Assembly: GCA_964370865.1 (NCBI GenBank)
Contig: CAYJKF010000001.1
Location: forward strand, 111,766-175,765
DNA length: 64,000 nt
Direction: 5' to 3'
From: an uncultured Candidatus Saccharibacteria bacterium
GTDB taxonomy: Bacteria; Patescibacteriota; WWE3; 2-01-FULL-39-13
In this document: piece after piece, positions 5,928-64,000 of the stretch
Layout of the letters: each line of letters starts with the position of its first letter
How positions within the stretch are numbered: position 1 is the first letter of the stretch
Notes under the pieces: generated by a model
What the model saw: only the letters and a program-made list of their open reading frames with translations
Databases searched by the model: none
Told to the model about the DNA's origin: nothing
Made by a program: the position numbers and the translations under genes

Positions 5928-5939
5928 AGAAATTTTATT

Positions 5940-11438: not shown

Positions 11439-11457
11439 TGTTGTAAAATAAGTTAAA

Positions 11458-12489
11458 ATGATTAGTATAAAACCTTTGATAGAAAAAAATAAAAAAATAG
11501 CCATATTAATTCTAGTTTTATTTTTGGGTGGTTTAATTTATTATCTATTTTCGAGCGGTATATTTTTAGGTCCTGGACCAGGTACAAGTGTCATTGACCT
11601 TTCTACACCAAGTATTAATGTAGCTGGAAACCAAGAAAGTAAATATAAGATAGAAAGATCTCTTTATTTCAAAGTTACGAATCCGCACGGCGGTGAAATA
11701 CTTCCAATTTATAAATATAACAAAAATGATTTAACTACTGATGAGCAGTTAATAGGAAAAATAGCCGAAGAAGTTGGACTCACCAAAAAAAAAGAAATTA
11801 ATTCAGTTGGACAAGGAACTGTCCTTGTTTTGCATTCAGAAGATAGTGCAAGGGGTATCACATTAAATAAACAAAACAACGTTCTAACTTATAGTAATAT
11901 CAGCTACGACAAAGCTATACATTTTAAAACCAACGATCAAATCGAAAAGGCTCGTAATTCAGCAGAAAGTTTTTTGAAGGAATTAAACCTCTGGAGTGAA
12001 AATTATAGTCTAATTGGCGCTCTATATAGAGATGATAAAATATCTTCTCAACAGCCAGAAACTTCAACCCCACTAAATCAGTCTACAACTGTAGAATTTT
12101 TATTTGAAAATAAAATTGATGGCTATGAAGTATCTACTCTACCCTATTCGGTTCAAGGTGATTATATTAATATCGCGGTATCCGCTGATAATTACACCAT
12201 CACAAAAATTCAATTAGTAATTTCAGGTGAAATTTCAAGTGAACAAGGCAAGGTAAAGATTATTTCATTAAATGACCTTATTAGAGATATAGATAATGGA
12301 AACCTAAAATTAATAGATACGTTAGCAGAACCTGATGCGGTATTTGACAGAATCGTTGTGTCGGAAGCTACTATCTTTTATTATGCACTTGATGGTCAAA
12401 TAGTTCCTGCATATAGAATTACAGGAACAGCAACTGACCAACGAGGGCAAGCATCGCCTGTTTATTTTATCGCCAATGCTTTCAAATAA
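11458..12489 (+). CDS. bitopic membrane protein (N-terminal TM, extracytoplasmic domain); VirB8/PrgL-like candidate
   Basis: 343 aa with a single N-terminal helix IAILILVLFLGGLIYYLF, then a soluble domain. The VirB8-like call is based on size, topology and neighbourhood only. Confidence 0.35.
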   Translation: MISIKPLIEKNKKIAILILVLFLGGLIYYLFSSGIFLGPGPGTSVIDLSTPSINVAGNQESKYKIERSLYFKVTNPHGGEILPIYKYNKNDLTTDEQLIGKIAEEVGLTKKKEINSVGQGTVLVLHSEDSARGITLNKQNNVLTYSNISYDKAIHFKTNDQIEKARNSAESFLKELNLWSENYSLIGALYRDDKISSQQPETSTPLNQSTTVEFLFENKIDGYEVSTLPYSVQGDYINIAVSADNYTITKIQLVISGEISSEQGKVKIISLNDLIRDIDNGNLKLIDTLAEPDAVFDRIVVSEATIFYYALDGQIVPAYRITGTATDQRGQASPVYFIANAFK

Positions 12490-34074: not shown

Positions 34075-35746
34075 AGAAGAATCACTAGAGGCCAATGCAG
34101 GTCAAAAACACCCAGTCCCACAGAACGTCATGGATGTTGAGTTTAAAGTTGTAGGAGATTTAACATTAAGGCAAGTCATGTATATTGCATTTGGGGGAGT
34201 TACAGCATACTTTTTATATAAAACAGGTTTACCAAATTTCTGGAAATATATACTAATGGGAATAAGTTTGATTACCGGAACGACAGTTGCTTTTGTTCCA
34301 ATTCAGGAACGCGGGCTTGATAAATGGTTAGTTATATTTATTAATTCAATCGTGAATCCGACCCAAATGATATGGAGAAAGTCTGTTAATTATGCCTCTG
34401 TATCCTTTTTATCAAACTACGACCAACTTCAAATAATAAAAAACGAAATGGTCTCACTTACACCTATTAAGAATCGTAACCGACTAGAAGAATATTTGGG
34501 TATGATTGAAAACACTCAAGATTCTAATTATGACCAATTCGAGATAACCCGAATGGGAGAAATCCAAAATAACCTAAGCGCTAAATCAAACGTTAGTGTC
34601 ACAACTCGCTTTGAAGAAACTCCAACTCTAGAACCTGTAATTCCGACTATTGATAAAGCCAGAATTCCAGAGAGAACACATGAAATAATTGACGTAGAAA
34701 AGAATCCAAAAATAGCTTCTCTTCCACACCAAAATACCATTGCTGAAGACGAGCTGGAGAGTAAGAAGGAGTTATTAAATGCCCTAGCAAACATCGAGGG
34801 AGGGTATAATAAAGATGGGCCAATCGAAATCTTTACTGAACAAAAGGTTAACAGACCTATTCTAAATCTACCTGAGCTTGGATCCAATAACTTCTCCTTG
34901 AAGGGTGAAATTAAATTAAAGAATATACGTAAATTCCCAACGGTAATCGTTGCCGAAGATATAAAAGGCATAAAAGAGCACGAAGAATCTCTAGAAAAAA
35001 AAGTATCAGAATTATTAATACTCGCAAAAAAAGCTAGAGCACAGTATCAAATTAAAAGTGGAAAAGAACCTAGTTTTAATACACCTATTGTTGAGGACGT
35101 TAAAGGCAGGGTTACGCAGTTAAGAGAGGAAAAGAAAAAACTTAAATTGGAAATTGATAAAAGCACAGAACAAGTAAATCTTATAGATAATACAAACAAA
35201 AACAGAGAAACACTTCAAAACCAAATTCAGATGTTAACACATAAAAATGAGGAACTTGAAACCATACTAAAGAAAATTAACTTAGAACTTGATGAACTGA
35301 AAGGAACACCAGAATACAAGGCTTCCAAGCAAAAAGAACCTGTAGAAAAGGTTGAAACTGAAGAAACTAAAACTGAAGAAGTGTTTACACCTGAAAAACC
35401 AATTACCCCAAAACCAATCGACAACCAGGTCGATGAGTTTAAATTCAAAGCAAGGCCATCCGTCAATAGTTCGTATCAAAACACTAATATTATCGAAGGA
35501 CTTGTAAAAGACATCTCTGGTAAACTAGTAGAAGGAGCAGCGGTTATTATTAAAGACTCACAGGGAAATGTTATTAGAGCCCTAAAAACTAACCAAGTCG
35601 GACAGTTCAGAACGCAGACTTCTGTACCAAATGGCAAATATACAATTGAAGTACTAAAAGGTGGCATGAGTTTTGATATTATAATAGTTGAAGCCGTTGG
35701 AAGGCATCTGAATCCAATTTACTTAGTAGCCAAGGAGTTAAATTAA
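34064..35746 (+). CDS. PrgI/VirB3-like two-helix membrane module fused to long coiled-coil domain
   Basis: The N-terminus DLTLRQVMYIAFGGVTAYFLY plus a second helix ILMGISLITGTTVAFVPI resembles the PrgI family of Gram-positive T4SS. It is followed by ~350 aa of K/E/L heptad-rich sequence. It lies directly upstream of the VirB4-like ORFs. Confidence 0.45.
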   Translation: MPIKEESLEANAGQKHPVPQNVMDVEFKVVGDLTLRQVMYIAFGGVTAYFLYKTGLPNFWKYILMGISLITGTTVAFVPIQERGLDKWLVIFINSIVNPTQMIWRKSVNYASVSFLSNYDQLQIIKNEMVSLTPIKNRNRLEEYLGMIENTQDSNYDQFEITRMGEIQNNLSAKSNVSVTTRFEETPTLEPVIPTIDKARIPERTHEIIDVEKNPKIASLPHQNTIAEDELESKKELLNALANIEGGYNKDGPIEIFTEQKVNRPILNLPELGSNNFSLKGEIKLKNIRKFPTVIVAEDIKGIKEHEESLEKKVSELLILAKKARAQYQIKSGKEPSFNTPIVEDVKGRVTQLREEKKKLKLEIDKSTEQVNLIDNTNKNRETLQNQIQMLTHKNEELETILKKINLELDELKGTPEYKASKQKEPVEKVETEETKTEEVFTPEKPITPKPIDNQVDEFKFKARPSVNSSYQNTNIIEGLVKDISGKLVEGAAVIIKDSQGNVIRALKTNQVGQFRTQTSVPNGKYTIEVLKGGMSFDIIIVEAVGRHLNPIYLVAKELN

Positions 35747-36446: not shown

Positions 36447-38561
36447 ATGTTAGGAATATTTGGGAAGAAAAAACAAGAGAAACCAAAAACTAATATTCCA
36501 AGCGATATGGAACAACCCGAAAATGTATCGAAAGCACTCTTAAAGGGAATTCCAGGGGTAAAAGATATAATCGCACCAAGCGCAATTGAAGTTGATTATA
36601 ATCATATAAAAATTGGAGATAAATATTTCAGAACCCTATTCATTTCTGCATACCCAAGATTCTTAGGCGCAAACTGGCTAGAACCAATAATAAACTTCAA
36701 TCATACAATGAGCATTTCAATGTTTTATTATCCAGTAAATGCGAGAAATGTTTTAGATGATATGAGAAGAAAAATCGCAGAAATGGAAGCCTCCATAAAC
36801 ATTGCGCGCGACAAAGGTAAAGTTGTAGATCCTGGAATTCAAGTGGCTCTGGAAGATGCGAAATCGCTACAGGAACAACTAGTAAAAGGGATTGAAAGAT
36901 TTTTTCACTATTCGTTCTATGTAACGTTTTCAGCCGATTCCTTAGAGGAACTAAAGGACGTATCTTATCAAGTTGAATCAACATTAGGGTCAATGGGACT
37001 GATGTCGAAAAAAGCTTCCCTTGATATGGAAAATGCTTTTAAAAGCACCCTTCCTCTTTGTTTAGATAAACTAAAAATAATTCGAAACATGGATACTACT
37101 TCCGTGGCTACAACCTTTCCGTTTACATCCAGCGATTTAACGGCGAATGAAGGAATTTTATATGGTGTAAATAAACATAACAGATCATTGGTTATTTTTG
37201 ATCGATTTAGTCTTGAGAACTACAACACTGTAGTCTTTGCCAAATCAGGTTCTGGTAAATCATATCTAGTGAAACTTGAAGCACTGAGATATTTGCTATT
37301 TGGCGTGGATATTATCGCCATAGATCCCGAAACTGAATACAGAAGATTATGCGAAGCTGTTGGGGGAGACTATATAGACTTCAATATAAAAAGTCAATCT
37401 AAGATAAATCCTTTTGAATTACCAGTTGTCACTGATACAGAAGATCAGTTAAGTCTTAAAATTTTAAGCCTTCATGCTCTTTTTAAAATTATGTTAGGAG
37501 CACTCTCCCCTGCAGAATCATCTATTCTGGATAGAGCCTTGGTAGATGTATATAGACTAAAAGGCATTACACAGGATGCTGCCACACAGAAAAATGAGCC
37601 TCCTCTAATGGAAGATTTATATAAAGTTCTACTTGCCATGGATGAACCAGAGTCTAAAGCTATTTCCGAGAGACTCGAAAGATTTATAAAGGGCTCCTTA
37701 GCAGGTGTATTTGATCAACGTTCAAATATCAATTTAGATAATAACTTCACTGCATTTTCGATTCGAAACCTTGAGGATGTATTAAGGCCAATCGCAATGT
37801 TTATGATTTTGGATTTTATTTGGACAAAGGTTAAATATGATCTCAAAAAACGTATATTAATTTTGGATGAGGCCTGGACGTTAATGCAATATCCTGATTC
37901 GGCTGCATATGTTTATTCATTAGCGAAAAGAGCCCGAAAATATTTCTTAGGATTAACAACTATTACTCAAGATGTTGCCGACTTCTTAGGTTCAGATTAT
38001 GGAAAAGCTGTTTTAAATAACTCCTCAATTCAAATACTACTAAAACAACATCCAGCCGCAATCGATAAAGTTGCTGAAGTCTTTTACTTGTCAGCAGGAG
38101 AAAGAAATTTCTTGCTTTCAGCAGGTGTTGGCGAGGGATTATTCTTTGCTGGAACCAACCACGTGGCAATTCAATTCAAGGCTTCGAAACAAGAACATTT
38201 GTTAATTACTACAAATCCTCAGGAAGTTGCGAAAATCGATGCTGATAAAAGCTTTAATGATTCACTAAAAACCGTAGATGAAAAAAACCAAACTAATGCT
38301 CCTCAGCAAGTGGGGATAGCTAATAAATATCAAATTATTGAACAGATTCCGCAACAAACACCAGTAGAAACCAATAGTGAAGTTATTGATCCTTTCGATA
38401 AAATTAGTCCCGTCTCAACTTCAGATGAGACTAAACCTATAAGCAATGCCGGCATTACTCCAATGCCAAATCCCTACTCTGGAATAACTGGAGATGACAG
38501 TGAAAATTATAAATCTGGAACAATTATTCTAAACGAAAGAAATTCAAGACCTACGGCGTAA
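36447..38561 (+). CDS. VirB4/PrgJ-like conjugation ATPase, ATPase body (Walker A/B) with C-terminal low-complexity tail
   Basis: IKIGDKYFRTLFISAYPRFLGANWLEPIINF (VirB4 mid-region), Walker A FAKSGSGKSY, Walker B RILILDEAW, then a ~100-aa Pro/Thr/Asn-rich tail. AGGA ribosome-binding site 7 nt upstream of the ATG. Confidence 0.7.
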   Translation: MLGIFGKKKQEKPKTNIPSDMEQPENVSKALLKGIPGVKDIIAPSAIEVDYNHIKIGDKYFRTLFISAYPRFLGANWLEPIINFNHTMSISMFYYPVNARNVLDDMRRKIAEMEASINIARDKGKVVDPGIQVALEDAKSLQEQLVKGIERFFHYSFYVTFSADSLEELKDVSYQVESTLGSMGLMSKKASLDMENAFKSTLPLCLDKLKIIRNMDTTSVATTFPFTSSDLTANEGILYGVNKHNRSLVIFDRFSLENYNTVVFAKSGSGKSYLVKLEALRYLLFGVDIIAIDPETEYRRLCEAVGGDYIDFNIKSQSKINPFELPVVTDTEDQLSLKILSLHALFKIMLGALSPAESSILDRALVDVYRLKGITQDAATQKNEPPLMEDLYKVLLAMDEPESKAISERLERFIKGSLAGVFDQRSNINLDNNFTAFSIRNLEDVLRPIAMFMILDFIWTKVKYDLKKRILILDEAWTLMQYPDSAAYVYSLAKRARKYFLGLTTITQDVADFLGSDYGKAVLNNSSIQILLKQHPAAIDKVAEVFYLSAGERNFLLSAGVGEGLFFAGTNHVAIQFKASKQEHLLITTNPQEVAKIDADKSFNDSLKTVDEKNQTNAPQQVGIANKYQIIEQIPQQTPVETNSEVIDPFDKISPVSTSDETKPISNAGITPMPNPYSGITGDDSENYKSGTIILNERNSRPTA

Positions 38562-39047: not shown

Positions 39048-39407
39048 CTATAATACCTGATTTGAAACTTCTTGGGATTCGATTGAAACAATTCCTTTTA
39101 GTGCTTTGAGGGCTTTTTCAATTTGTTCGTATTTGAGGTTGGTATTTCCTGTAAGTAAATCTACGTATATAAAGGAATGCTCTGGCCAAGTATGCAAAAC
39201 CAAACTAGACTCCGATAAAATGTATACTAAAGTTTCTCCTTGAATGGGATAAGCATAGTAGCATTTTTCAACAACACTTAATTGCGCTTCTTTTGAGATA
39301 GTATCGGCTAATAAATATAAGGCTTCCTTTGAATATTTATATTCCGAAGAAGTAGTGATTTTTATGACCGAATGATCAATTTTGATGTGTGTAGATGCTT
39401 TTTCCAT
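39048..39407 (-). CDS. speH: S-adenosylmethionine decarboxylase proenzyme (SpeH-type, pyruvoyl)
   Basis: ESSLVLHTWPEHSFIYVDLLTGN matches the class-1 AdoMetDC core (ES|S processing site, HTWPE). The start is set at MEKASTHIKID. The ORF-track start at 39503 would overlap the upstream gene by 128 nt. Confidence 0.65.
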   Translation of the reverse strand: MEKASTHIKIDHSVIKITTSSEYKYSKEALYLLADTISKEAQLSVVEKCYYAYPIQGETLVYILSESSLVLHTWPEHSFIYVDLLTGNTNLKYEQIEKALKALKGIVSIESQEVSNQVL

Positions 39408-40359
39408 TATATTGTCCTTTGACGAGTGGTTCTGTAGACGGAGTAACGTCGCAAACGTACAAATTACTTGAAGATCCAATACTTTCGGCTCCTTTATATA
39501 CATTAAACCTGTCGAGTGAATATCTTATCATAAGCCCACTGTCGGTTACAACCTTCTGGATTTTGAGGAATTTCTCCCTAGAAAGCTCACTATTACCGTA
39601 ACAGAAATAAATTCTTGAGGCTTTGTTATGAAAATCTAGTGCCTGAATTGCCCGGGAAAGAAATATCTTTATTCCCTCTTCTGTATAAGGTGGATCGGTA
39701 AAAACCACATCGAACTGACTTTTCAAATCTGTAGGAAAATTATCTTTAACGTCTCCTTTTATGATTTTAATTGGTAAGTTGAAACCAGCGGCATGTGTTT
39801 TTATAGAATTAATAACAAGATCATCTATTTCAAACACGCTAACTTGCTCGGCTTCATTCAATATACTTACAGCAACCGAAGTATAATCATCATCCCCAAG
39901 AAATAAAACTCGTTTACCCGACAAATCAAAATTCTTACTCATGTATAAAGCTCGTTTAGTAATAGTTTCGGAAGTTGCGGCAAATTGGTCGAACTCTCTT
40001 TTATCATGGACTTGAGACTTTTCCCTAATATCCTTTATTGTGTTATAGAGCTCTGTACTTTCAACATTTTCAATCTTTACGGACTGTCGGTTATCGGATA
40101 ATGTGGCTAAACTTTGCGCGACTTTTTTACCGTATTCGCTCAGCATAGTTTGAGGAACGATCTTCTCGAACATAGGACTTAATTCTTTTTTGATTAAAGT
40201 TAGACTTTGCAAAGATACGCCAGTTGATTGGATTACTTCTTTATTAACTAGACTACCTTGTTTAAAAAGCAGCACGAATAACTCCACAAGCTGGGAAAAA
40301 GGAATCCCAGATTTTTTAGAAAATCCTAATAAATCGGCGTTTACAAGTGGTTTTGCCAT
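39376..40359 (-). CDS. DUF43/BpsA-like aminopropyltransferase (polyamine biosynthesis)
   Basis: 327 aa. The FLGDDDYTSVAV (GDDD motif) and FTDPPYT segments resemble the DUF43 branched-polyamine synthase family. Its 3' end overlaps speH by ~32 nt. Confidence 0.5.
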   Translation of the reverse strand: MAKPLVNADLLGFSKKSGIPFSQLVELFVLLFKQGSLVNKEVIQSTGVSLQSLTLIKKELSPMFEKIVPQTMLSEYGKKVAQSLATLSDNRQSVKIENVESTELYNTIKDIREKSQVHDKREFDQFAATSETITKRALYMSKNFDLSGKRVLFLGDDDYTSVAVSILNEAEQVSVFEIDDLVINSIKTHAAGFNLPIKIIKGDVKDNFPTDLKSQFDVVFTDPPYTEEGIKIFLSRAIQALDFHNKASRIYFCYGNSELSREKFLKIQKVVTDSGLMIRYSLDRFNVYKGAESIGSSSNLYVCDVTPSTEPLVKGQYNGKSIYTHQN

Positions 40360-51687: not shown

Positions 51688-52242
51688 ATGAACCCTCTTA
51701 AACTCTTTCAAAAACTTAAGAATAACGAAGAAAACTTAATTTACGACCTAGAAAAGGACTTTCAAAGCAATAATTTTAGGTTAGCGCTTAAACTATATTC
51801 GGAAATCGGTAGCTCGGTACTATTATTAGTACTAATTGGTGTTATCGGCATATTATACGGATTTCAGGTATTTGTCCTAATTTTATTGGTCTATCTATTT
51901 CAGCTTGTTCTAATTGAAGTTATAAAATATGTTTTTAATCGTGGAAGGCCAAAAACCTATAAAAACGATTCGATTTTAGGTTTTCGAATGACTAGTGGTT
52001 CATTTCCATCAGGGCATACATCCAATGCATTTGCGATGGCCTTTTTGCTTGCAAATGTATTCAAAACCGATATTTACACGACAACAATGTTTTTTATAAT
52101 AGCCGGCGTAGTTGGGATTACTCGAATATTTTTAGGGAAACATTTTTTAGTCGATGTTGTCGGAGGCGCAATCCTTGGACTAGTTTTTGCAACTGTGGGA
52201 CTAGCCCTTTACGTAGCCGGGTATGGAATACTCTTCCAATAA
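51688..52242 (+). CDS. PAP2-family lipid phosphatase
   Basis: 184 aa. KYVFNRGRPK (KxxxxxxRP), SFPSGHTSNAF (PSGH) and FLGKHFLVDVVGG (SRxxxxxHxxxD-like) are the three PAP2 motifs. Four TM helices. Confidence 0.7.
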   Translation: MNPLKLFQKLKNNEENLIYDLEKDFQSNNFRLALKLYSEIGSSVLLLVLIGVIGILYGFQVFVLILLVYLFQLVLIEVIKYVFNRGRPKTYKNDSILGFRMTSGSFPSGHTSNAFAMAFLLANVFKTDIYTTTMFFIIAGVVGITRIFLGKHFLVDVVGGAILGLVFATVGLALYVAGYGILFQ

Positions 52243-52246
52243 ATAA

Positions 52247-53065
52247 ATGTTAATTGATACACACATCCATCTCTCTGATGAAAAATACACTGATGTAGAA
52301 GGAATTCTAAAGTCGGCAAACCAAAACTTGGTAAAAAATATAATTACTATTGGATGTACCGTACAGGAAATTAATAAAAATAAACAACTTGTTGAACAAT
52401 TTGACAATGTTTATTCATCGGTTGGGGCTTATCCGCTGGATAATGTTCGAGAAAATATGAATTTAGGAATAAACGAATTAATAGAGAACATTCACAAATC
52501 ATCTAAAGAAGAGCATGTCGTGGCAATCGGGGAATGCGGTTTAGACTTTAGTGAAAGTCTTCCTCCTTGGGAAGTTATGCGAACACAGAAAGAACAAGAA
52601 AAATTATTTTGTTCACAAATAGAAATCGCGAGAAATATGAATGTTCCCGTGATTGTTCATTCGAGAAATGCCGCTGACTTAACACTAGAAATTCTAACTT
52701 CAGAAATAAAGACTAAGGAATTTAAATTTGTATGGCATTGTTTTACTGAAAACTTCGAAGTCGCGAAAAAAGCCCTCGGCCTCGGAGGGTTAATTTCTTT
52801 TACTGGAATAATAACTTATAAAACAGGAAGTCCACTTGCGGACGTTATCCAGCACTTTCCACTTGAAAAAATGATGCTAGAAACTGATGGCCCCTATTTA
52901 GTACCAGAGCCGGTTCGATCAAGTGGCATAAAAATAAATCGGCCTGAATATGTTAAAATTATTGCCGAGAAAATAAGCGAAATCAAAGGGATTTCTTATG
53001 AACAGGTGGCCGCTCAAACCACGCTAAATGCCACTCAATTTTTTAGTCTAAAACCAAATGATTGA
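52247..53065 (+). CDS. TatD-family metal-dependent hydrolase (DNase)
   Basis: LIDTHIHLSDEKY (HxH), IGECGLDF, VIVHSR and METDGPY are TatD motifs. Confidence 0.8.
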   Translation: MLIDTHIHLSDEKYTDVEGILKSANQNLVKNIITIGCTVQEINKNKQLVEQFDNVYSSVGAYPLDNVRENMNLGINELIENIHKSSKEEHVVAIGECGLDFSESLPPWEVMRTQKEQEKLFCSQIEIARNMNVPVIVHSRNAADLTLEILTSEIKTKEFKFVWHCFTENFEVAKKALGLGGLISFTGIITYKTGSPLADVIQHFPLEKMMLETDGPYLVPEPVRSSGIKINRPEYVKIIAEKISEIKGISYEQVAAQTTLNATQFFSLKPND

Positions 53066-54590
53066 TCCTAAAAAGAAACTAGATAGATTTTTAATGTTCA
53101 TACCAGGATTTTCCAGTTGGGTAATGATTTTTATGCCAATTTGGCTTGGGCTAACATCTCCAAGAAGCGCTGCTTTTGTTTTAACTTTTCTTGCTGTGTA
53201 TTGGGTTTATCTTTCTGTCATTCATGTATTCAATTTATTTAAGGGATATTACCGCTATGAAAGAGAAGTAAAGATTGATTGGCTACAGAGGATTAAAGCT
53301 CTTGATTATAAAAATCTACCTGGAAAAGAAACTCTACCTGACTCATTTGAGAAAACTAAACACTTCATATTAATTCCAACAGTAAAGGAAGGATACTCAA
53401 TTCTGAAAGATACATTTGAAGCATTGATAAACAGTAACTATCCAAAAGAAAATATGATAATTATTGTTGGAACCGAAGAAATCGGAAAAGAAATAGTTGA
53501 AAATGCTTTAGCTCAAGTTAAAGAAACGTTTGGAAACAAACTTCCAAGGATTATGCATTTCATTCATCCACGTGGTTTGCCTGGGGAAATCGTTGGTGTT
53601 GCTTCACCTAATAGAAAATGGGCAACGGTAAAAGGGATTGAGACATTATTAGCAGAAGGTGAAGATATTAAGAATTATATTTTTACAACTTTTGATTCTG
53701 ACTGGAAATTACATAAAGAATTTATTCCAAGATTAACTTACGAATATTTAACCGATGAAAAAAGATTTAATAGATTTTATGAAACCGTCGTCCATCTATT
53801 TAGCAACAACTTGCTAGAGGTTCCTTTAATCTCGCGGATAGAATCACACAATATAACACTTGGGATGCTCGCAAACTGGACGTTATCTCCACAGTATAAA
53901 GAGTCGTTCTCCTGTTACTCTGCTGCGTTACAAACAGTAATTGATGCTAATTATTGGGATACAACAATGATTGATGATACGGTTTTTTATTGGAGAGCAT
54001 TATTAGCAAGAGAGGGAGATTTTACTGCAAAGCATTTTTATATTCCAATCTATGGCGATGCAACCGATGGCGATACTTATCTAAAGGCCCATAAAAATCT
54101 TTATAAACAATTGGAGAGATGGGGTTGGGGAAGTATTACTACAGTAATTGGTTTAAAAACCGTTCTAACTATTTTAAGAAAGAAAACCTCCTTCGAAGAT
54201 AAAGTCTTATGGGTGTGGTCAAAAATGGAACGACATTTATTTTTGCGAACAAGCGTTTTCTTATTAACATTTGGGTTTTCAATTATTACCTTAGTTAATA
54301 TAACTTTCAAAAGCACGACTACCGTTTATGCACTTCCTCAAACGTTAAGCGTCTTACTTACAACTGGATTGCTAATGTTAATACCAATTGGATATATAAA
54401 ATATAAGCTCTACCAAGATTTAATTCATAAAGACTGGCCACTTTGGCGAAAGGCAATTATTTTTTTGGAAGGACCCTTGATAATGATTAACTTATTAACC
54501 TTTTCATTTATCCCTTGGTTAATAGCAGAAACACAAATGATGTTTGGAAAACTACCAAAAGTGACTTTTTATACTCCCAAAACAAGATAG
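53058..54590 (+). CDS. membrane-embedded family-2 glycosyltransferase with QxxRW motif (processive-synthase-like)
   Basis: 510 aa. N-terminal TM pair, then a GT-A-like domain with TFDSDW and YKQLERWGWGS (QxxRW). Five C-terminal TM helices. Confidence 0.45.
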   Translation: MIDPKKKLDRFLMFIPGFSSWVMIFMPIWLGLTSPRSAAFVLTFLAVYWVYLSVIHVFNLFKGYYRYEREVKIDWLQRIKALDYKNLPGKETLPDSFEKTKHFILIPTVKEGYSILKDTFEALINSNYPKENMIIIVGTEEIGKEIVENALAQVKETFGNKLPRIMHFIHPRGLPGEIVGVASPNRKWATVKGIETLLAEGEDIKNYIFTTFDSDWKLHKEFIPRLTYEYLTDEKRFNRFYETVVHLFSNNLLEVPLISRIESHNITLGMLANWTLSPQYKESFSCYSAALQTVIDANYWDTTMIDDTVFYWRALLAREGDFTAKHFYIPIYGDATDGDTYLKAHKNLYKQLERWGWGSITTVIGLKTVLTILRKKTSFEDKVLWVWSKMERHLFLRTSVFLLTFGFSIITLVNITFKSTTTVYALPQTLSVLLTTGLLMLIPIGYIKYKLYQDLIHKDWPLWRKAIIFLEGPLIMINLLTFSFIPWLIAETQMMFGKLPKVTFYTPKTR

Positions 54591-54607
54591 TTATATACTA
54601 GGTAAAT

Positions 54608-56080
54608 ATGAAGCCTCGAATTAAGAAGCTAGGAACAATTAGAGACTTATTCAATGAAAACCTCCCGTATATGATAATGGTTTTGATTCTATTACTTTCA
54701 TTAGCTGGGTTTATTCAACAGAACTTTCGAAATCTTCCACTTCAGATCCCGCTTTTTTACGCATTAGGATGGGGAACTCAACAGCTTGGACCTCGTAATT
54801 ATCTTTGGATTTTTTATGGAATTCTTGTATTTATTGGCATAATCAATTCGGTAATGGCAATGATTGAAACTAGAAAAGGTAATTATCAAATCTCAAAACT
54901 TTATCATTATTTTTCTTATTTCATCATCGTAACGGGGTCAATTTTCATCAATAATACGATTTCTGCGGTTACTCTTTTTGATATGGAAGTCCCTATGATT
55001 ATTAGAATCATAGTATTACCAATGGTAGCGGCGGCCATAACCGTTTTATTCGTCACGCCGATAGTAATAAAACTTGCTAGACGAAATGGCTTTATGGATG
55101 ACCCACTCGCGCATAAACATCCCGGAATGCTAATAAAAAAACCAACTCCAAGAGCAGGAGGACTCGCTTATTATCTTGGCATTATAATTCCAGGACTAAT
55201 TATTCTACCTATACTTAGCAGTCAAAAACTTATAGGAATATTAATTGGGGCAGCCGTATGTGTTCTAGTTGGTTTAAAGGATGATAAAAAAGATATTCAT
55301 CCAATTACCAGACTAATCGTGCAAATCTTAACTGTCAGCATACCGGTTTTATCAGGAATAATTCTTTTATATATACCCAACCCTTTCGGTGACGCCGTCG
55401 TATTAGACCAATACAGAATTACTTTTAATTATTTAGGCGAACATAGTGTTTATTATTATTCAGTCCTTGTCGCAATGCTTTGGATGGGCGTCACCATGAA
55501 TTTTATGTCTTTTGCGAATGGATCAGATGGAGCATACGCAGGATTAGTCTTCGTTGCTTCTTTTGTAATTGCGATAGTTATGTTTCAAACACTCGATGTT
55601 GATCCGGAGCAAGCTATGTTTATAAAATTGGCGGCGTTGTCGGCTGGCGCCGCAATTGGAATGGCGTATTTTACATGGCCACCTCAAAAAATATTGTGGG
55701 GATTTGGTGCAACGTCCGCAGGTTTAATAATTGCGGCGCTGTCTATTATCGGTAGTACAAAAGTTGCGGTAATGTTATTGGTATTATTGATTCCATTTTT
55801 TGACGGATTAGTTGCGGTCGTTAGAAGAATTCGAAGGGGGCAACTTCCATTTTGGGGAGATCGTGAGCATCTTCATCATAAACTTTTATTTAGACTTGGA
55901 TGGAATAAATCTAAAGTAGCTACTTTTTACTGGGCATCATCAATAATGTTAGGGGTAGTTGGTATTTTAACTTCTGGAAGAATCAGAGCATTATGGGCAT
56001 TAACAATGGTTGGAATATTCTTTTTAGGAATCGCCGCACTAAACTTTATTGGAAGAGACAAAGAACCTGCTGTTAAATAA
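54608..56080 (+). CDS. polyprenyl-phosphate N-acetylhexosamine-1-phosphate transferase (MraY/WecA family, GT4) with N-terminal extension
   Basis: 490 aa, polytopic. GLKDDKKDIHP (DD motif) and FMSFANGSDGAYAGL (NxxNxxDGxDGL-like) are characteristic of the MraY/WecA superfamily. Confidence 0.65.
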   Translation: MKPRIKKLGTIRDLFNENLPYMIMVLILLLSLAGFIQQNFRNLPLQIPLFYALGWGTQQLGPRNYLWIFYGILVFIGIINSVMAMIETRKGNYQISKLYHYFSYFIIVTGSIFINNTISAVTLFDMEVPMIIRIIVLPMVAAAITVLFVTPIVIKLARRNGFMDDPLAHKHPGMLIKKPTPRAGGLAYYLGIIIPGLIILPILSSQKLIGILIGAAVCVLVGLKDDKKDIHPITRLIVQILTVSIPVLSGIILLYIPNPFGDAVVLDQYRITFNYLGEHSVYYYSVLVAMLWMGVTMNFMSFANGSDGAYAGLVFVASFVIAIVMFQTLDVDPEQAMFIKLAALSAGAAIGMAYFTWPPQKILWGFGATSAGLIIAALSIIGSTKVAVMLLVLLIPFFDGLVAVVRRIRRGQLPFWGDREHLHHKLLFRLGWNKSKVATFYWASSIMLGVVGILTSGRIRALWALTMVGIFFLGIAALNFIGRDKEPAVK

Positions 56081-57053
56081 CTACGGTTTCTGCAAAGAGT
56101 GGCAGTACATTTGTAATCACTACAATAATAATTGTCATTAAAATTACTGAGAATAGTAAAGGGCGATCATTCAGCAAGACTCTTTCTGGACTTTCCCCTT
56201 CTTTCTTCTCGTAAATTACATATAAATATCTAGCGACTCCATAAATTACGATTGGAATAGTTAACATTAATAACTTTGGCCCGGCTAAAGTGGATGGAAG
56301 AAATTTTCCAAATTCCCCTTGAAATGGATTGTCTGGAGATGTTTGAAACGCAAATAAAGCGTATGTGATTATAGAAAAAGACGCCGACATTGAAATCATT
56401 GAGTCTAATAAATTATCTGGATAGTGTTTTAAAATAGTTCGTGTACTCTCTCTCGAAATTCCTTGGGCTTCAAGCAATGTTCTTTCTGCACGTCTCTTTC
56501 CAAAAGCTAGTAGAAGTGACGCCCCAGTAATTGCCAGTATCAACCAAGACGAAATTGATAACGGAATTGCTAAAGCTCCTGCAAATGCTCTAAGAATAAA
56601 ACCTAATGAAATCGTTAAAGCATCAACAATTATTACATCTTTTAGCTTAAGGTTATAAGCCATTTGAAGTAACACATATATACAGAGTACAATCCCAAAA
56701 TACTTTCCAACATTTACAAATGAAAGAGGCAAAAATACTGCAAAAATTACCAACGCGATAGCGATGGCCAATCGAACAGGAAGCTTTCCTGACGCGATTG
56801 GCCTATTCTTTTTAACAGGATGAAGCTTATCTTTTTCAATATCCTTTATATCATTTATTAGGTAGACTCCGGAAGCTATAACACTAAAGAATACAAATGC
56901 ACTCGTGGATTTCCAAAAAATTTCAGCATTAAAAAGTTCTCCAGAGAAGATTACAGGGGCAAAAATTATAAGATTCTTAATCCATTGCCTTGGCCTAAAC
57001 GCTCGAATAATATGATAGATTAAATGATCCGACTTCAATACCATTTGATGCAA
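56073..57053 (-). CDS. UbiA-family prenyltransferase (decaprenyl-phosphate phosphoribosyltransferase-like)
   Basis: 326 aa, polytopic. YLINDIKDIEKDKLHPVKKNRPIASGK carries the NDxxDxxxD motif plus a basic loop, as in DPPR synthases. Confidence 0.6.
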   Translation of the reverse strand: MHQMVLKSDHLIYHIIRAFRPRQWIKNLIIFAPVIFSGELFNAEIFWKSTSAFVFFSVIASGVYLINDIKDIEKDKLHPVKKNRPIASGKLPVRLAIAIALVIFAVFLPLSFVNVGKYFGIVLCIYVLLQMAYNLKLKDVIIVDALTISLGFILRAFAGALAIPLSISSWLILAITGASLLLAFGKRRAERTLLEAQGISRESTRTILKHYPDNLLDSMISMSASFSIITYALFAFQTSPDNPFQGEFGKFLPSTLAGPKLLMLTIPIVIYGVARYLYVIYEKKEGESPERVLLNDRPLLFSVILMTIIIVVITNVLPLFAETVVI

Positions 57054-57066
57054 TTATAGCAAACCG

Positions 57067-57618
57067 CTAGATTTTGATTTTTCTACCTATCTTCGCTATT
57101 AAATCTTCGTAAAAGGTACTCTCTGGTTCTTCTTCTATTGATAGATACTCGTTTACAATACGTACCAGCGCCGTTTTATCCATATCGTTTGGAAGTATAA
57201 GAAATAATCTCCCAGGTAAGGGATCTACTGTGTTAAAAGTCAAAAGCTCGTAACCATATTTTTTTTCTAAGAAAAAGTTCTTGAAATAGTCCCACTTGTA
57301 TAAATGTGCGGACGCATAATGTACTCCACTCGTACTTATTTTATGAACTACATTTTTTGGCGGGATTGAGGTAGCAACGTATACGACGAAATAAACCGCA
57401 AACAACACAAGAACAAAAACAATCTCTTTAAATATTAGAAGTAATATAGAAAAGAAAATAATAATCACCGCGATTTTTCTGTAAAATTCTCTGGATTTTT
57501 TCACGAAAATTCTTTCAGGGGCTTCCCATTCTAGAAGTACTTGTGTTGGTTTTATGATTTTAGGGGCACTCTCTACCTCGGTTTGCTCTGGTGGTAAGAA
57601 TTTACTAAAAATAGCCAT
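57067..57618 (-). CDS. hypothetical two-TM membrane protein
   Basis: 183 aa with central helices IAVIIIFFSILLLIF and IVFVLVLFAVYFVVYV. No motif. Confidence 0.35.
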   Translation of the reverse strand: MAIFSKFLPPEQTEVESAPKIIKPTQVLLEWEAPERIFVKKSREFYRKIAVIIIFFSILLLIFKEIVFVLVLFAVYFVVYVATSIPPKNVVHKISTSGVHYASAHLYKWDYFKNFFLEKKYGYELLTFNTVDPLPGRLFLILPNDMDKTALVRIVNEYLSIEEEPESTFYEDLIAKIGRKIKI

Positions 57619-57641: not shown

Positions 57642-58205
57642 CTATATCTTCGTATCATACAACCGTGTATGAGCCGCGTCTGAGACCGAAATGATATGTT
57701 CAAAGCCTGTATCGTCAATATCTATGATTGTTAAAGAAGTATTATGAATAACAAAATGTGTAAATGTAGTTGGACTGGCCTCTCCCAATATTCGCATTAA
57801 TAAAGATCTTATTAGATTGCCATGTGTAAACAGAATAATTTCTTCATTTAAGTGACGTTTAACAAATCTGTGAAATAATTCATAGATTCTATCAGAATGC
57901 TCTTTCAAATCCTTTATCCCAGCAACGGGAGTAGGTTGCCCTGGTCTTGGCCAATCATCATTTCCCACCTCATTTAAGGCTGAGGTGTAAATAACAGGCA
58001 TTTCATGAACTTCGTTAACAATTTGGCAGGTTTCCATTGCTCTTTGAAGTCGACTACAGTACATAGTATTAAATTTGTTTTCTTTTAAACGTCGGGCAAG
58101 TTGTAACGCTTGGATTTTTCCTTGGTTATTTAATGGATAATTATCTAACTGAAGACCATCAAGTCCATAAGCATCCCCATGCCTGACTAGATAAATACGA
58201 GTCAT
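57642..58205 (-). CDS. histidine phosphatase family protein (phosphoglycerate-mutase-like)
   Basis: 187 aa. The RIYLVRHGDA (RHG motif), RAMETC and LFTHGNLIRS (H-G) segments are typical of the family. Confidence 0.65.
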   Translation of the reverse strand: MTRIYLVRHGDAYGLDGLQLDNYPLNNQGKIQALQLARRLKENKFNTMYCSRLQRAMETCQIVNEVHEMPVIYTSALNEVGNDDWPRPGQPTPVAGIKDLKEHSDRIYELFHRFVKRHLNEEIILFTHGNLIRSLLMRILGEASPTTFTHFVIHNTSLTIIDIDDTGFEHIISVSDAAHTRLYDTKI

Positions 58206-58305: not shown

Positions 58306-58398
58306 GGAGGGATGGCCGAGTGGTTTAAGGCGACGGTTTGCTAAACCGTTGGGGGTCTAAAAGCTCCCGCGCAGGTTCAAATCCTGTTCCCTCCGCCA
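58306..58398 (+). tRNA. tRNA-Ser (anticodon GCU), long variable arm, CCA encoded
   Basis: Acceptor GGAGGGA/TCCCTCC. Anticodon arm ACGGT-TTGCTAA-ACCGT (GCU). Long extra arm TGGGGGTCTAAAAGCTCCCGC. T-loop TTCAAAT. Discriminator G, CCA. Confidence 0.75.
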
Positions 58399-60889: not shown

Positions 60890-63800
60890 TTATACGTTAT
60901 TCTTTTTACGTCTTCGAAAAATAAACAAGAAGACTGCGGACAGGATTATTCCAACGGTAAAACCATACACATATTTAAGTTTTGACTGTGTACCATTTTC
61001 CTCTAGTTGAATTTTTATCTCAATTCTTTTGTTATCAGAAGTGGAATCAATCGTAAACTCTTGCTTTGCTAATAAATCTCCTTTATAGATTTCGAGTTTA
61101 TGTGCACCTTTTTCTACATTTGTAAATAGGACCTCACCCTTTTCGTCTGTAATCCCCTCTTGAACTTCTGAATGAAGAATGACCTTGGCGCCAATAACAG
61201 CGTTTTGATTTTTATCTACTATCTGTAAAAGTAAACTTTCAATTCTTTCTTGAGGTAAAACTTCTGTGTTTGTTTCGTTTTCAGTTGTAACCGAATGCGT
61301 AGGTGAAATAATCTCCTCCGCTTCTTCAATAACTTCGGTCTTTCCGGGGAATACTTCCGTTTCAGAATTCTCGACAACCGACTTAATTAAAAGGCTACTC
61401 GATTCACCACTCTTCAAGGTTTTAACTGAAATATGATCTGACCAATCGCTATCTCCACAATCATGAGTTGCTCTAATTTGGAAAAAGTATTCAGTATCGA
61501 TCTCCAGACTTTTAATAGTATCTGATAAATCACCTCTTTTTGAAATATTTCTTATAGTTTTTTCATGCGTTACTTTTGACTTGCCATACCTTAAATCAAA
61601 AGTCTCGTAATCATCTTTTAACTCTCCATAGAATAGCTTAATTTCTGAAGGACTTTCGGCAATGGCTGATATTATTTTTGGCTCTCTGGGAATATCATCA
61701 TCTTCACATTGATCGTTTTCACTGCTACTTGCTTCAACTTCTTCCGGAGGAGTTGGTGTCGGCGTTGGTGTAGGAGTAGGCGTTGGCGTCGGCGTTATAT
61801 AGTTAAAAGTAATATCTTGTAGCTCTGAACTAGCAGAAGAGGTTCCTCCAAAATTTGCACGGTACTGTAGGTACCTTCCTACCAATCCGATTTCATCTAA
61901 ATCACTAAAATCACTGGACCAAGAAGACCAGGTAATTGCATCATCAGAGGTCCTCGCTTGAATTCCAAGAGTAGTGCTTCCGGGGAGTTCTAGATTATAA
62001 GACAGCTCACCCCACTCGGTGTTGGCAGTCTGCGAATCGAGAAAACATGAATTATAGACACCAGAAGTGGCGGTATACGATTCTGGTGTATCTATCCAAT
62101 CCAGAGTAAGATCCGAACCCGACGTCGTTGTATTATTGGAAAGAATTACAACTTGATTCGACGCTGGAATATTTGTAGTCACGGTATCTACTAAGACATC
62201 ATCGATATAGTATCTAACTTCAGTTGTATCCCAATCAATTTTATATTTATGAAATGCTCCCAGATACGAAGTCCCTAGCGTTGTCTGTGTCTGACTACCC
62301 CCATCGTAAGTTCGCGTTTTTAAAGTAGCTTCATTCCCTGTACTAAACATAACAAATGTGTTAAACCCTTCATCCGATGCAAATCCAATATGTTGGTCAT
62401 TATGAGCCGTAAATTGTGCTCTAAATTCTAGCGTTGTTCCTACGGCAAAACTAGAACTAGTTTTCACATAAACTCCAGTGGAGTTTTTATAGACCAGTAG
62501 ATTTCCATCGGGGATAGGATCAAAGAAACCTGAAGCATATACGCCGCCCGTCCATTTATCTGAAAAAAGACTTGTGTAAGGAACCTGAGGTGTCTGAAAA
62601 TCATCAGCAAGAGTATTAAGAAGTGAAATTTCCCCTCCCTCTCGATTCTTCACCACCGTATCCTCAAGTACAGCGCATGAACCACCAAATACATCCCAGT
62701 CAGTCTGAACATATGGGGAGCTTGCTACATTGATATCTGAAAAAGTATTACTGTCAGAGAGTGTTACATAGCCAAAATGGATTTCATGGGGAGGAGTGCT
62801 AGCATCCAACGCGTTATTGAGTCTGTAAAACAACAGAATTTTATCATCAACTCTAGATTCATAAGTAATGGGAATATCTATGGAACGATTCGGAACAGTG
62901 TAGTACGAAACCGATGAGGACCAACTATTTCCATCAAAGGTTTTATAGTAAGTATGCCCACAAACAGAAGCATCCCCACTTATTAAATAAAAGTAATAAA
63001 GGTTGTCTTCAACATTGTCATAACTTATATCAAAAGTTGGGTATAAACAATGTGTTCCACTTGCCGAATATACATTGCTTACAAGTGAAACGGTATCATC
63101 CGCACTAACTTCGAAAAGACTTTGAGTATCACCCGACCCACCTGTGATCCAGCGAGCAATTCCAATATAAACTTTTTCATGTGCATAAATGGGTTTGCTT
63201 ATGAGCTCATGTTTTAACGAATAACCGCTATTATTATTGATTGGACCACCAAACTCTTCGGCTGTAGTCCAACTACCGCTCCAATTCATTTCGACTTCAT
63301 CATAATTCAACCGACGATAAATATACGTATCATTACCCGAAGCAAAATAGTACAAGTCATTTATATTGGGACCACTATCAACGACTAGAGCAGATTGTTG
63401 TTGGACCGCCGCCGAACCAGACACAACATAAAGAATATTGTAATCGACTAATGCATTAGAGACAGAAGTATCCGAAACTCCATTGAGCGCGTCCCAATTT
63501 CCAGCAATAAAATCGTTTGAATTATTGCTTAAGATACGTGTAGTTGCACGAAATTCCGTAATATCTTCTCCCGAACAACCCGTTTTTCCAGCAAACCACA
63601 TTGCCACTAATACTTTTTGCCCATTAAATTCTTTTAAAATTGCGATGGGGTTATATCCCCACATATCACTACACCCCGTCCCGTCATCTAATTTAAGGTT
63701 TGTTGTCCCGGGGTCTACTACAAAGCCAGTTATTTCATAATTAGAATTTCGAGTGATTTTTATTCGTGTGTAGTAAACAGCTCCACCAACAACATTTCCA

Positions 63801-64000
63801 ATTGCATGCAATTTGTCAGTGGAATCATCATAAACAACAGATGATCGATTCAGGATCGTCGTTGTGGCAAAATCAAACTCATTCCAATTAACTCCTTTAT
63901 CATTACTGTAAGCAATTCGAAGGCTACTATCTCCGTGTTCCTGAATTGGAACCATGTAGTGCCCATACGCATCAATCATGATTGGTCTGCCCTGTGACCA
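60890..64000 (-). CDS. giant cell-surface protein, 5'-partial (N-terminus lies beyond the window end), C-terminal TM anchor
   Basis: More than 1029 aa, still open at the window edge. A PT-repeat linker, an FN3-like segment, a CarbopepD_reg-like beta-sandwich (GAKVILHSEVQEGITDEKGEVLFTNVEKGAHKLEIY), then the C-terminal helix GFTVGIILSAVFLFIF followed by RRRKKNNV. Confidence 0.55.
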   Translation of the reverse strand, partial: WSQGRPIMIDAYGHYMVPIQEHGDSSLRIAYSNDKGVNWNEFDFATTTILNRSSVVYDDSTDKLHAIGNVVGGAVYYTRIKITRNSNYEITGFVVDPGTTNLKLDDGTGCSDMWGYNPIAILKEFNGQKVLVAMWFAGKTGCSGEDITEFRATTRILSNNSNDFIAGNWDALNGVSDTSVSNALVDYNILYVVSGSAAVQQQSALVVDSGPNINDLYYFASGNDTYIYRRLNYDEVEMNWSGSWTTAEEFGGPINNNSGYSLKHELISKPIYAHEKVYIGIARWITGGSGDTQSLFEVSADDTVSLVSNVYSASGTHCLYPTFDISYDNVEDNLYYFYLISGDASVCGHTYYKTFDGNSWSSSVSYYTVPNRSIDIPITYESRVDDKILLFYRLNNALDASTPPHEIHFGYVTLSDSNTFSDINVASSPYVQTDWDVFGGSCAVLEDTVVKNREGGEISLLNTLADDFQTPQVPYTSLFSDKWTGGVYASGFFDPIPDGNLLVYKNSTGVYVKTSSSFAVGTTLEFRAQFTAHNDQHIGFASDEGFNTFVMFSTGNEATLKTRTYDGGSQTQTTLGTSYLGAFHKYKIDWDTTEVRYYIDDVLVDTVTTNIPASNQVVILSNNTTTSGSDLTLDWIDTPESYTATSGVYNSCFLDSQTANTEWGELSYNLELPGSTTLGIQARTSDDAITWSSWSSDFSDLDEIGLVGRYLQYRANFGGTSSASSELQDITFNYITPTPTPTPTPTPTPTPPEEVEASSSENDQCEDDDIPREPKIISAIAESPSEIKLFYGELKDDYETFDLRYGKSKVTHEKTIRNISKRGDLSDTIKSLEIDTEYFFQIRATHDCGDSDWSDHISVKTLKSGESSSLLIKSVVENSETEVFPGKTEVIEEAEEIISPTHSVTTENETNTEVLPQERIESLLLQIVDKNQNAVIGAKVILHSEVQEGITDEKGEVLFTNVEKGAHKLEIYKGDLLAKQEFTIDSTSDNKRIEIKIQLEENGTQSKLKYVYGFTVGIILSAVFLFIFRRRKKNNV
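61749..61796. repeat. ACNCCN hexanucleotide tandem repeat encoding (PT)8 linker
   Basis: The minus strand reads acg ccg acg cca acg cct act cct aca cca acg ccg aca cca act cct, which encodes TPTPTPTPTPTPTPTP. Confidence 0.5.

Follow-up and report, generated by a model that had tools for sequence, protein, structure and literature searches.

A putative polyprenyl-phosphate-based surface-glycan gene module conserved in WWE3 and other Patescibacteria

The 64-kb stretch of contig CAYJKF010000001.1 analysed here (the window; G+C content about 36%) comes from an uncultured bacterium of the patescibacterial lineage WWE3. Towards its right-hand end it carries genes for a membrane glycosyltransferase of family 2 (GT2), a WecA-like protein of the PNPT family of polyprenyl-phosphate sugar-phosphate transferases, a UbiA-family enzyme, a TatD-family hydrolase and two putative phosphatases. 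We interpret these genes, with a probability of roughly 0.55, as a single polyprenyl-phosphate-based surface-glycan module that is old and conserved in Patescibacteria. Such an order is far from anything that chance would give; its core is shared by two patescibacterial lineages, and the window holds a rearranged WWE3 version of it. The evidence bears directly on the family-level chemistry of the proteins and on their conserved linkage, from which we infer the pathway, the product and the mechanism. The features concerned, with coordinates, gaps and overlaps computed from the list of open reading frames (ORFs) of the window, are these:

51688-52242, forward strand: PAP2 lipid-phosphate phosphatase, 184 residues; first gene of the putative forward operon
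52247-53065, forward strand: TatD-family metal-dependent hydrolase, 272 residues
53058-54590, forward strand: membrane GT2 (GT2L), 510 residues
54608-56080, forward strand: GT4/PNPT protein, whole ORF, 490 residues
54608-55030, forward strand: N-terminal module of the GT4 protein, about residues 1-140, with four predicted transmembrane (TM) helices; boundary approximate
55031-56080, forward strand: predicted WecA-type PNPT core (PF00953), with a non-canonical active site
56073-57053, reverse strand: UbiA-family enzyme, 326 residues; convergent with the GT4 gene
57067-57618, reverse strand: 183-residue membrane protein, between the histidine phosphatase and UbiA
57642-58205, reverse strand: histidine phosphatase (branch 1); first gene of the putative reverse operon (histidine phosphatase, 183-residue protein, UbiA)
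24992-26230, reverse strand: membrane-anchored protein with PEGA and SH3_3 domains; displaced module member

The linkage of these genes was followed in two sets of loci, one of 80 species-representative WWE3 loci found with the GT2 family and the other of 80 Daviesbacteria-like metagenome loci found with a short form of the PNPT; the denominators given below are the testable loci. In WWE3 the PNPT gene lies directly downstream of GT2 in 66/71 loci and TatD directly upstream of it in 57/72, with UbiA within 8 kb in 39/56, a Wzy_C-family protein in 31/53 and a PEGA/SH3 gene downstream in 36/53. The usual order has TatD, GT2 and PNPT reading forwards, a small gene reading in the opposite direction, UbiA and Wzy_C forwards again, and PEGA/SH3 reversed. 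The Daviesbacteria-like order is nearly invariant: TatD (upstream in 35/35), a GT2 homologue (48/49), a small gene, the PNPT, UbiA (adjacent to the PNPT in 50/53) and PEGA/SH3 (38/39). Module genes are adjacent in some 70-100% of testable loci in both lineages, and in loci L090 and L091 the PNPT and UbiA ORFs even overlap, by 55 nt. The GT2 homologues of the two lineages are only 27-31% identical and the orthologues overall 27-47%, and the flanking genes differ completely between WWE3 and Daviesbacteria-like loci, implying that the linkage is old.

Within the subclade to which the window belongs the gene order recurs in loci L005-L007, L088 and L089, and the exact layout of the window is found in L088 and L089 at about 60-75% identity. 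Compared with the usual WWE3 order, UbiA is inverted, PAP2 heads the forward operon, and the histidine phosphatase and the 183-residue protein have been placed upstream of UbiA. Because the same layout recurs in L088 and L089, the presence of PAP2 and the histidine phosphatase is stable in this subclade.

An initial annotation of this DNA had described five consecutive genes, from PAP2 to UbiA. Their ORFs lie exactly at the positions it gave, and all five of its family assignments hold, including those of a DPPRS-like UbiA enzyme, a WecA-type rather than MraY-type transferase and a synthase-type GT2. The set is larger than it had supposed, with the 183-residue protein and the histidine phosphatase, which read in the same direction as UbiA, and the displaced PEGA/SH3 protein also belonging to it. 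Conserved synteny supports the joint role in envelope-glycan synthesis that was proposed for the set. It does not extend to a further GT2 at 29296-30699 that had been linked with it: this ORF encodes a genuine GT2, its GT2 domain resembling small soluble-type enzymes, and it was rejected as a member because it is found near the module in 0/80 WWE3 loci.

The spacing of the genes fits two convergent operons. On the forward strand, 4 nt separate PAP2 from TatD, the 3' end of TatD overlaps the GT2 start codon (8 nt), and 17 nt separate GT2 from the GT4 gene; on the reverse strand, the gaps are 23 nt between the histidine phosphatase and the 183-residue protein and 13 nt between the latter and UbiA. 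The GT4 and UbiA genes overlap by 8 nt at their 3' ends. The reverse unit is bounded by a tRNA-Ser (GCT) gene at 58306-58398 on the forward strand (Rfam, 61.5 bits; ARAGORN), the Rfam search returning nothing else, and a nusA-infB-rpsO-pnp block lies on the opposite strand upstream of the forward operon. Scans for consensus promoters and terminators gave sites no more frequent than in shuffled sequence.

What reaction does the UbiA-family protein catalyse? Its general family match (PF01040, 66 bits) is accompanied by scores above the cut-offs of two NCBIfam models for decaprenyl-phosphate phosphoribosyltransferase (DPPRS), NF008978 (237.9 bits, cut-off 207) and NF008977 (238 bits, cut-off 234), while the actinobacterial-type model NF008976 gives 173.5 bits, under its cut-off of 474. 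Models of non-DPPRS subfamilies reach at most 39 bits (CyoE 25.7, UbiA 22.3), and the MenA model gave no match in the NCBIfam profile search. Rv3806c of Mycobacterium tuberculosis (PDB 8j8j) matches with E = 7.7e-40, and its motifs NDVRDVEAD and GKRYAE align with those of the window's protein. The NDIKDIEKD motif quoted in the initial annotation comprises residues 67-75, so that N67-D68-x-x-D71-x-x-x-D75 is intact, as it is in 120/120 of the nearest relatives; G185KRRAE (185-190) is likewise intact and is kept in 119/120. Residues of the Asp-rich and R/E motifs are essential in Citrobacter ORF15 and also matter in Rv3806c (PMC11127046). From these motifs and scores the protein is predicted to be a polyprenyl-phosphate 5-phosphoribosyltransferase (PPPRS) of the DPPRS type, rather than a relative of MenA or CyoE as had been entertained (238 bits against 39 or less). 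A quinone or heme prenyltransferase of the MenA, CyoE or UbiA kind is ruled out by the hidden Markov model scores.

The initial annotation had also held such an enzyme to be unusual outside Actinobacteria, a view that is not supported. UbiA-type polyprenyl-phosphoribose synthases have been demonstrated experimentally in Citrobacter and Pseudomonas, with candidates in Gram-positive bacteria and a phage (PMC11127046), and Kelly et al. (2024) place such enzymes in Gram-negative O-antigen synthesis and pilin glycosylation (PMC11127046). The nearest relatives of the window's protein, in WWE3, Parcubacteria and other Patescibacteria, are already named decaprenyl-phosphate phosphoribosyltransferase by NCBI, and the UbiA gene is a regular neighbour in both sets of loci (39/56 and 50/53, as above). 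DPPRS-type enzymes were in this sense already known to be widespread, which deflates the earlier claim.

The 510-residue GT2 has no match by sequence in Pfam, NCBIfam or the PDB. It carries a QxxRW motif in the form QLERW (residues 351-355) together with D213-S-D215 and D306-D307, and D213, D215, D307, Q351, R354 and W355 are invariant. The AlphaFold model (pLDDT 90.9) shows six TM helices, two of them N-terminal and about four C-terminal to a GT-A domain, together with interface helices, and matches the cellulose synthase subunit BcsA, hyaluronan synthases (HAS) and chitin synthases. In its modelled fold and its motifs the protein belongs with the BcsA/HAS-type synthases, which polymerise processively and export their own product, and we predict that it is processive.

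The GT4 protein, which is identical to one database protein, belongs to PF00953 (Glycos_transf_4, 58.7 bits), and its only NCBIfam match is TIGR02380, wecA, at 49.5 bits against a cut-off of 326; no NCBIfam model for MraY was reported for it. Its AlphaFold2 model (pLDDT 85) resembles MraY (Foldseek TM-score 0.74-0.81) and DPAGT1 (0.65), with only about 345 residues aligned to either. The C-terminal loop is of the WecA type, with P396..D399, R406 R407 and D418-R-E-H-L-H-H424, and this P..D...RR...DR.H.HH pattern aligns with that of Escherichia coli WecA. Since this motif is WecA-like, wecA is the sole NCBIfam match and the window has no mur or fts genes, we assign the protein, as far as sequence can tell, to the WecA-like rather than the MraY-like members of the PNPT fold. 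An MraY within a dcw cluster, the other possibility raised at the outset, is not borne out by this motif or by the neighbourhood, which lacks mur and dcw genes, and is ruled out.

The initial annotation noted a long N-terminal extension on this protein. The extension is there, but it is the result of two genes having fused. The PNPT of Daviesbacteria-like and other Patescibacteria has only about 350 residues and is preceded by a separate gene for a membrane protein of 109-129 residues, such a small gene being found upstream of the short PNPT in 64/70 loci of the Daviesbacteria-like set. Residues 25-84 of the GT4 protein align with the 109-residue protein of L090 (37% identity, E = 2e-6), with which the N-terminus shares an LP..LPLFY.L.WG..QLA motif, and the N-terminus aligns also with the 129-residue protein of L091. 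On this alignment evidence the extension is the small membrane protein, encoded separately in other lineages and here fused to the enzyme.

The active site departs from the canonical pattern. When the protein is aligned with three MraY structures and with authentic E. coli WecA, the results agree. Of the five conserved aspartates of WecA, D90, D91 and D159 are retained as D225, D226 and D307, and H421, H423 and H424 are kept as well; the position of WecA D156 is occupied by N304 and that of WecA D217, equivalent to MraY D267, by F366. The latter is the Mg2+-site aspartate: D265 of Aquifex aeolicus MraY (AaMraY), D267 in the E. coli enzyme, is a catalytic residue beside Mg2+, and D217 in the F-x-G-D-x-G-S motif of WecA is its equivalent (PMC5039524). 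The position is aromatic (F, Y or W) in 120/120 retrieved close relatives. There is no acidic residue among the 35 residues surrounding F366 and none within about four positions of the aromatic site in these relatives. The other PNPT signatures (DD pair, D307, K361, P..D399, RR and DR.H.HH) are invariant in the relatives. A wider survey, by exhaustive search from a short-form member, gave among the 150 best WecA-like representatives D in 46, E in 26, F/Y/W in 57 and T/S/N in 19, the region aligning cleanly in all 150 (P.K-I-F-x-G-X-x-G-S). The aromatic state is always paired with an 'S.GVDGQ' form of the second motif, and two clade members (P0360 and P0367) retain Asp. The idea of a unique, clade-defining loss of this aspartate is weakened by this variation and by those two relatives; judged from the alignments, F366 is a lineage-level variant, and the site evidently varies within this part of the family.

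A PPPRS product carries a 5'-phosphate, and two catalytically intact candidates for its removal are encoded here, the histidine phosphatase, in the same operon as UbiA, and PAP2. The histidine phosphatase (PF00300, 110 bits) has intact RHG (8) and THG (127) motifs, and its best NCBIfam match is alpha-ribazole-5'-phosphate phosphatase (60 bits, below cut-off), an enzyme that acts on a ribose 5'-phosphate. It occupies the same position in L088 and L089 and occurs in 1/53 other WWE3 loci; we regard it as a candidate 5'-phosphatase for polyprenyl-P-ribose-5-P. PAP2 (PF01569, 89 bits) has intact KxxxxxxRP (80), PSGH (107) and TRxxxxxHxxxD (145) motifs, TR replacing SR in the last, and its best NCBIfam matches are undecaprenyl-diphosphatases, far under their cut-offs. 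PAP2 is also the family of mycobacterial Rv3807c, and the protein is a candidate either for recycling polyprenyl diphosphate or for an Rv3807c-like 5'-phosphatase. It is a subclade-specific addition to the module, present in L087-L089 and in 1/67 other WWE3 loci.

Of the remaining members, the 183-residue protein consists of one long hydrophobic hairpin and a soluble C-terminal part, has no Pfam or NCBIfam match, and has homologues (50% identity) in the same position in L088 and L089 and in 3/53 loci elsewhere in WWE3. The PEGA/SH3 protein, with its PEGA and SH3_3 Pfam matches, lies 26 kb from the other genes of the module in the window; in most relatives it is directly beside the UbiA and Wzy_C genes, and it is 50% identical to the L087 copy, which adjoins a Wzy_C-UbiA pair. 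The TatD protein belongs to its family (PF01026, 231 bits; TIGR00010, 227 bits, cut-off 206). We observe that it is tied to the glycan module in both lineages (57/72 in WWE3, 35/35 in the Daviesbacteria-like set), and we know of no role in glycan synthesis for a TatD 'DNase'.

How might these proteins work together? The PNPT, with its fused partner, would charge polyprenyl phosphate with HexNAc-1-phosphate to give a lipid-diphosphate-linked primer, and the GT2 would elongate the polymer from a nucleotide sugar and thread it through its own membrane channel, a logic that would be analogous to the WecA-primed, WbbF-type synthase-dependent route to O-antigen. There is precedent for the synthase-dependent extension of an undecaprenyl-diphosphate primer by WbbF (PMC2841628). 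In parallel, UbiA would convert phosphoribosyl pyrophosphate and polyprenyl phosphate to polyprenyl-P-ribofuranose-5-P, from which the 5'-phosphate would be removed by a phosphatase recruited in the subclade, either the histidine phosphatase (His_Phos_1) of the same operon or PAP2; alternatively, PAP2 may recycle polyprenyl diphosphate. The combination of a PPPRS with a separate phosphatase and an extracytoplasmic transferase likewise has precedent (PMC11127046). The resulting polyprenyl-P-ribofuranose, not epimerised to arabinose, would serve as a lipid-linked pentofuranose donor or anchor; for the PEGA/SH3 protein, a role as acceptor or as wall-binding partner is plausible.

Neither DprE1 (FAD_binding_4/ALO) nor DprE2 (a short-chain dehydrogenase/reductase, SDR) was found among the window ORFs or in the Pfam-labelled neighbourhoods of relatives, and for this reason the lipid-linked sugar would remain ribofuranose, which on the gene content is more likely than arabinofuranose. 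Flippases and outside transferases were sought in the same way. Among the window ORFs there is no member of the MatE or GtrA flippase families in Pfam, and none of a GT-C Pfam family, although two multi-TM ORFs (3-1181 and 5940-7397), which have no match at all, are conceivably GT-C enzymes; tblastn with Wzy_C proteins (from L002, L036 and L087) and with a GT-C-like protein (from L091) found nothing in the 64-kb window. Many WWE3 relatives carry a Wzy_C-family protein in the module, and some Patescibacteria a GT-C-like protein.

Some further genes may be noted in this connection. A 137-residue ORF at 5514-5927 on the forward strand, 46 kb from the module, has a sub-threshold match to EamA, a DMT-family half-transporter (22.7 against 28.2 bits), and could possibly be a small flippase for lipid-linked sugar; in L088 a complete EamA gene is encoded some 2 kb away from that of the histidine phosphatase. 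The reading frame of ORF 3-1181 (forward; given in the list as starting at 96) continues to the window's left edge, so that what it encodes is the C-terminal end of a longer protein; this end has seven or more hydrophobic segments followed by a soluble domain, has no Pfam or NCBIfam match, and is possibly a GT-C-like transferase. In L091 a 453-residue multi-TM protein (5238-6599, forward strand) is weakly similar, at E = 1e-8 and well short of the cut-off, to NF052499, a model for a mycobacterial GT-C mannosyltransferase; such proteins lie inside or beside the module in some Patescibacteria (upstream of TatD in L045, L037, L020 and L084) and are candidates for the missing extracytoplasmic transferase. 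Two conserved small membrane proteins form part of the usual WWE3 module, with homologues in L002, L087 and many other WWE3 loci: one of about 158 residues (s159), encoded on the opposite strand after the PNPT in 36/56 loci (for example L036 12970-13446, reverse strand), and one of about 185 residues with four or five TM helices, encoded between UbiA and Wzy_C (L036 15606-16163, reverse strand). Neither has a Pfam or NCBIfam match or a homologue in the window, and both were set aside as flippases on these grounds.

Several observations weigh against a single surface-glycan pathway. No flippase, GT-C or Wzy_C gene was found in the 64-kb window or near the module in 25 Daviesbacteria-like loci, and because the window has no GT-C or Wzy_C gene the pentofuranose-donor step lacks its last enzyme here. 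With F366 in place of the Mg2+-site aspartate of MraY and WecA, the PNPT step may not occur as proposed. Lipid primers are generally not required by processive BcsA/HAS-type synthases, leaving the coupling of the PNPT to the synthase as an analogy. TatD has no obvious role in the module. Streamlined Patescibacteria keep long stretches of gene order, so that synteny alone overstates functional linkage, and in the complete genome of one close relative, OZ246395.1 (945 kb), the GT2 lies about 500 kb from the PAP2-TatD-PNPT/UbiA-Wzy_C-PEGA genes (L001/L008 against L087), showing that the module can be split without loss of genes.

The neighbours may instead serve separate pathways and have kept their order only because reduced genomes rarely rearrange, a minority possibility that we nevertheless take seriously. 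The WecA-like protein would then start the linkage of a wall polymer, the GT2 would be a stand-alone exopolysaccharide synthase, UbiA would contribute to an unrelated pentofuranose decoration, and TatD and PAP2 would be housekeeping proteins. TatD often follows metG in other bacteria and has no known glycan role, and L091 indeed has a tRNA-synthetase-TatD pair at the head of the module; the module adjoins the universally conserved nusA-infB-rpsO-pnp block; UbiA is absent within 8 kb in 17/56 WWE3 loci; and in OZ246395.1 it is the GT2 alone that stands apart, the other genes being kept. Frozen gene order does not, however, readily account for a linkage that persists at 27-47% orthologue identity while the flanks differ completely, for the 55-nt overlap of PNPT and UbiA ORFs, for the small protein and the PNPT having become one polypeptide, or for the fact that the same genes stayed together through rearrangement in the window's subclade. 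These observations favour the single module.

The altered active site raises another question, whether the PNPT-like protein is an enzyme of the expected kind at all. It could instead be a polyprenyl-phosphate-binding or scaffold subunit, or have an altered chemistry or acceptor, for example the 5-phosphate of polyprenyl-P-ribose-5-P, in a complex with UbiA and the synthase. The substitutions F366 and N304 at the WecA D217 and D156 positions would suit such a role, as would the aromatic residue in 120/120 relatives with no acidic residue nearby, the description of AaMraY D265 as catalytic beside Mg2+ (PMC5039524), and the tight coupling of the gene to UbiA and its fusion to a partner protein. 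Yet all other PNPT signatures are invariant, which argues for retained catalysis, the D217 position is variable in the wider set, where substitution may be tolerated, and P0360 and P0367 keep the Asp; we consider this reading quite unlikely. A bolder form of it, which we offer as a long shot, is an ancient, hitherto undescribed envelope-polymer machine of Patescibacteria (at least of WWE3 and Microgenomates), in which the synthase, the Asp-less PNPT with its small partner and the polyprenyl-phosphoribose synthase form one complex that makes a polyprenyl-phosphate-anchored ribofuranose lipoglycan. The PNPT would have an altered chemistry, for instance taking the ribose-5-phosphate group made by UbiA as its substrate in place of bare polyprenyl phosphate. 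If this were true, the polymer would be an analogue of teichoic acid or lipoarabinomannan for cells unable to make their own fatty-acid lipids. Highly improbable, finally, is a mycobacterial-type decaprenyl-phospho-arabinose (DPA) pathway leading to arabinan or a lipoarabinomannan-like lipoglycan. The DPPRS-type enzyme and PAP2 do correspond to the Rv3806c/Rv3807c pair, but no DprE1, DprE2 or GT-C arabinosyltransferase is found in the window ORFs or in the relatives' Pfam-labelled neighbourhoods, and most WWE3 loci have no PAP2 in the module (present in 1/67). This pathway was set aside for the lack of DprE1/E2 in the window.

Elsewhere in the window, 34064-35746 (forward) encodes a PrgI-family protein and 36447-38561 a VirB4-like ATPase with a Walker A motif recognised by eye; two giant proteins of 1313 and 1183 residues, secreted or membrane-bound and encoded further upstream, perhaps belong with them (7497-16027, forward), and together these suggest a type IV secretion or conjugation-like apparatus. 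At 39048-40359 (reverse) an S-adenosylmethionine decarboxylase gene (PF02675) adjoins one for a BpsA_C branched-chain polyamine synthase-like protein (PF01861, 155 bits), by their families a predicted polyamine biosynthesis pair. A 1029-residue surface protein (60890-63979, reverse; 1084 residues according to gene callers in L005) is anchored in the membrane by its C-terminus. It further has a (TP)n linker, a CarboxypepD_reg-like domain, an fn3-like segment and a segment weakly resembling GH16/ConA. The 893-residue protein at 17263-19944 (forward) has a DUF4012 domain, and its N-terminal 260 or so residues look by eye like a degenerate Rossmann or epimerase-like domain.

Much of bacterial diversity is patescibacterial, yet the cell envelope of these bacteria, peptidoglycan and pili apart, is almost unexplored. 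A linkage held while orthologues are only about 30-45% identical suggests a surface polymer that has been conserved and is probably important, and the module supplies concrete genes for expression and assay. The PNPT variant, if active, would bear on the mechanism of an enzyme family that is an antibiotic target.

How does the module compare with known systems? In its UbiA-type enzyme it is close to the three-component pentofuranose systems (PPPRS, flippase and GT-C) of Citrobacter youngae O1/O2 and of Pseudomonas aeruginosa, in which the pilin carries D-Araf (PMC11127046). The enzyme has the same NDxxDxxxD and R/E motifs, those systems likewise need a 5'-phosphatase, drawn from varying structural families, and the Citrobacter system uses lipid-linked ribofuranose, as the absence of an epimerase implies here also. 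They differ in that the window lacks a MATE or GtrA flippase and a GT-C transferase, in that no HAD phosphatase domain is fused to its UbiA, for which His_Phos_1 and PAP2 are the phosphatase candidates, in that UbiA sits with a synthase-type GT2 and a PNPT and not in an O-antigen locus, and in the host, which is a monoderm-like Patescibacterium. The mycobacterial Rv3806c/Rv3807c/DprE1-DprE2 pathway likewise combines a DPPRS-type UbiA with a PAP2 protein, here encoded four genes away. In contrast to that pathway, the window has neither DprE1/DprE2 nor GT-C enzymes of the Emb/Aft kind, WWE3 as a whole does not conserve PAP2 as a partner, and the lipid is presumably C55 rather than C50.

Salmonella O:54 (WecA primer, WbbF synthase, WaaL ligase) shares with the module a WecA-type initiator and a HAS/BcsA-like GT2 predicted to both elongate and export, and Wzy_C, of the O-antigen-ligase family, is also part of the module in many WWE3 relatives. 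Unlike O:54, the window has no ligase, its PNPT site is non-canonical and a UbiA PPPRS is added, and a lipid-linked acceptor for the GT2 is proposed by analogy only. Compared with BcsA, the class I hyaluronan synthases and the chitin synthases, the GT2 is only 12-17% identical, reaches no Pfam model at threshold and has no PilZ domain or accessory subunit. The PNPT shares with E. coli WecA and MraY the fold, the DD pair, D159, P..D, RR and the DR.H.HH of the WecA type, and differs from them in the replacement of D156 by Asn and of D217 by Phe, in the fused four-TM N-terminal module and in the absence of a dcw or enterobacterial common antigen context. In the searchable literature we found no description of a patescibacterial module of synthase-type GT2, PNPT variant with small partner, PPPRS, TatD and PEGA/SH3, nor of a fusion of the small protein to a PNPT, nor of an aromatic replacement of the Mg2+-site Asp; on the WecA VFMGD motif nothing was found either. 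We conclude that, while the DPPRS-type assignment is not new, the module, the fusion and the Asp replacement appear to be, and that all of the parts are drawn from known families.

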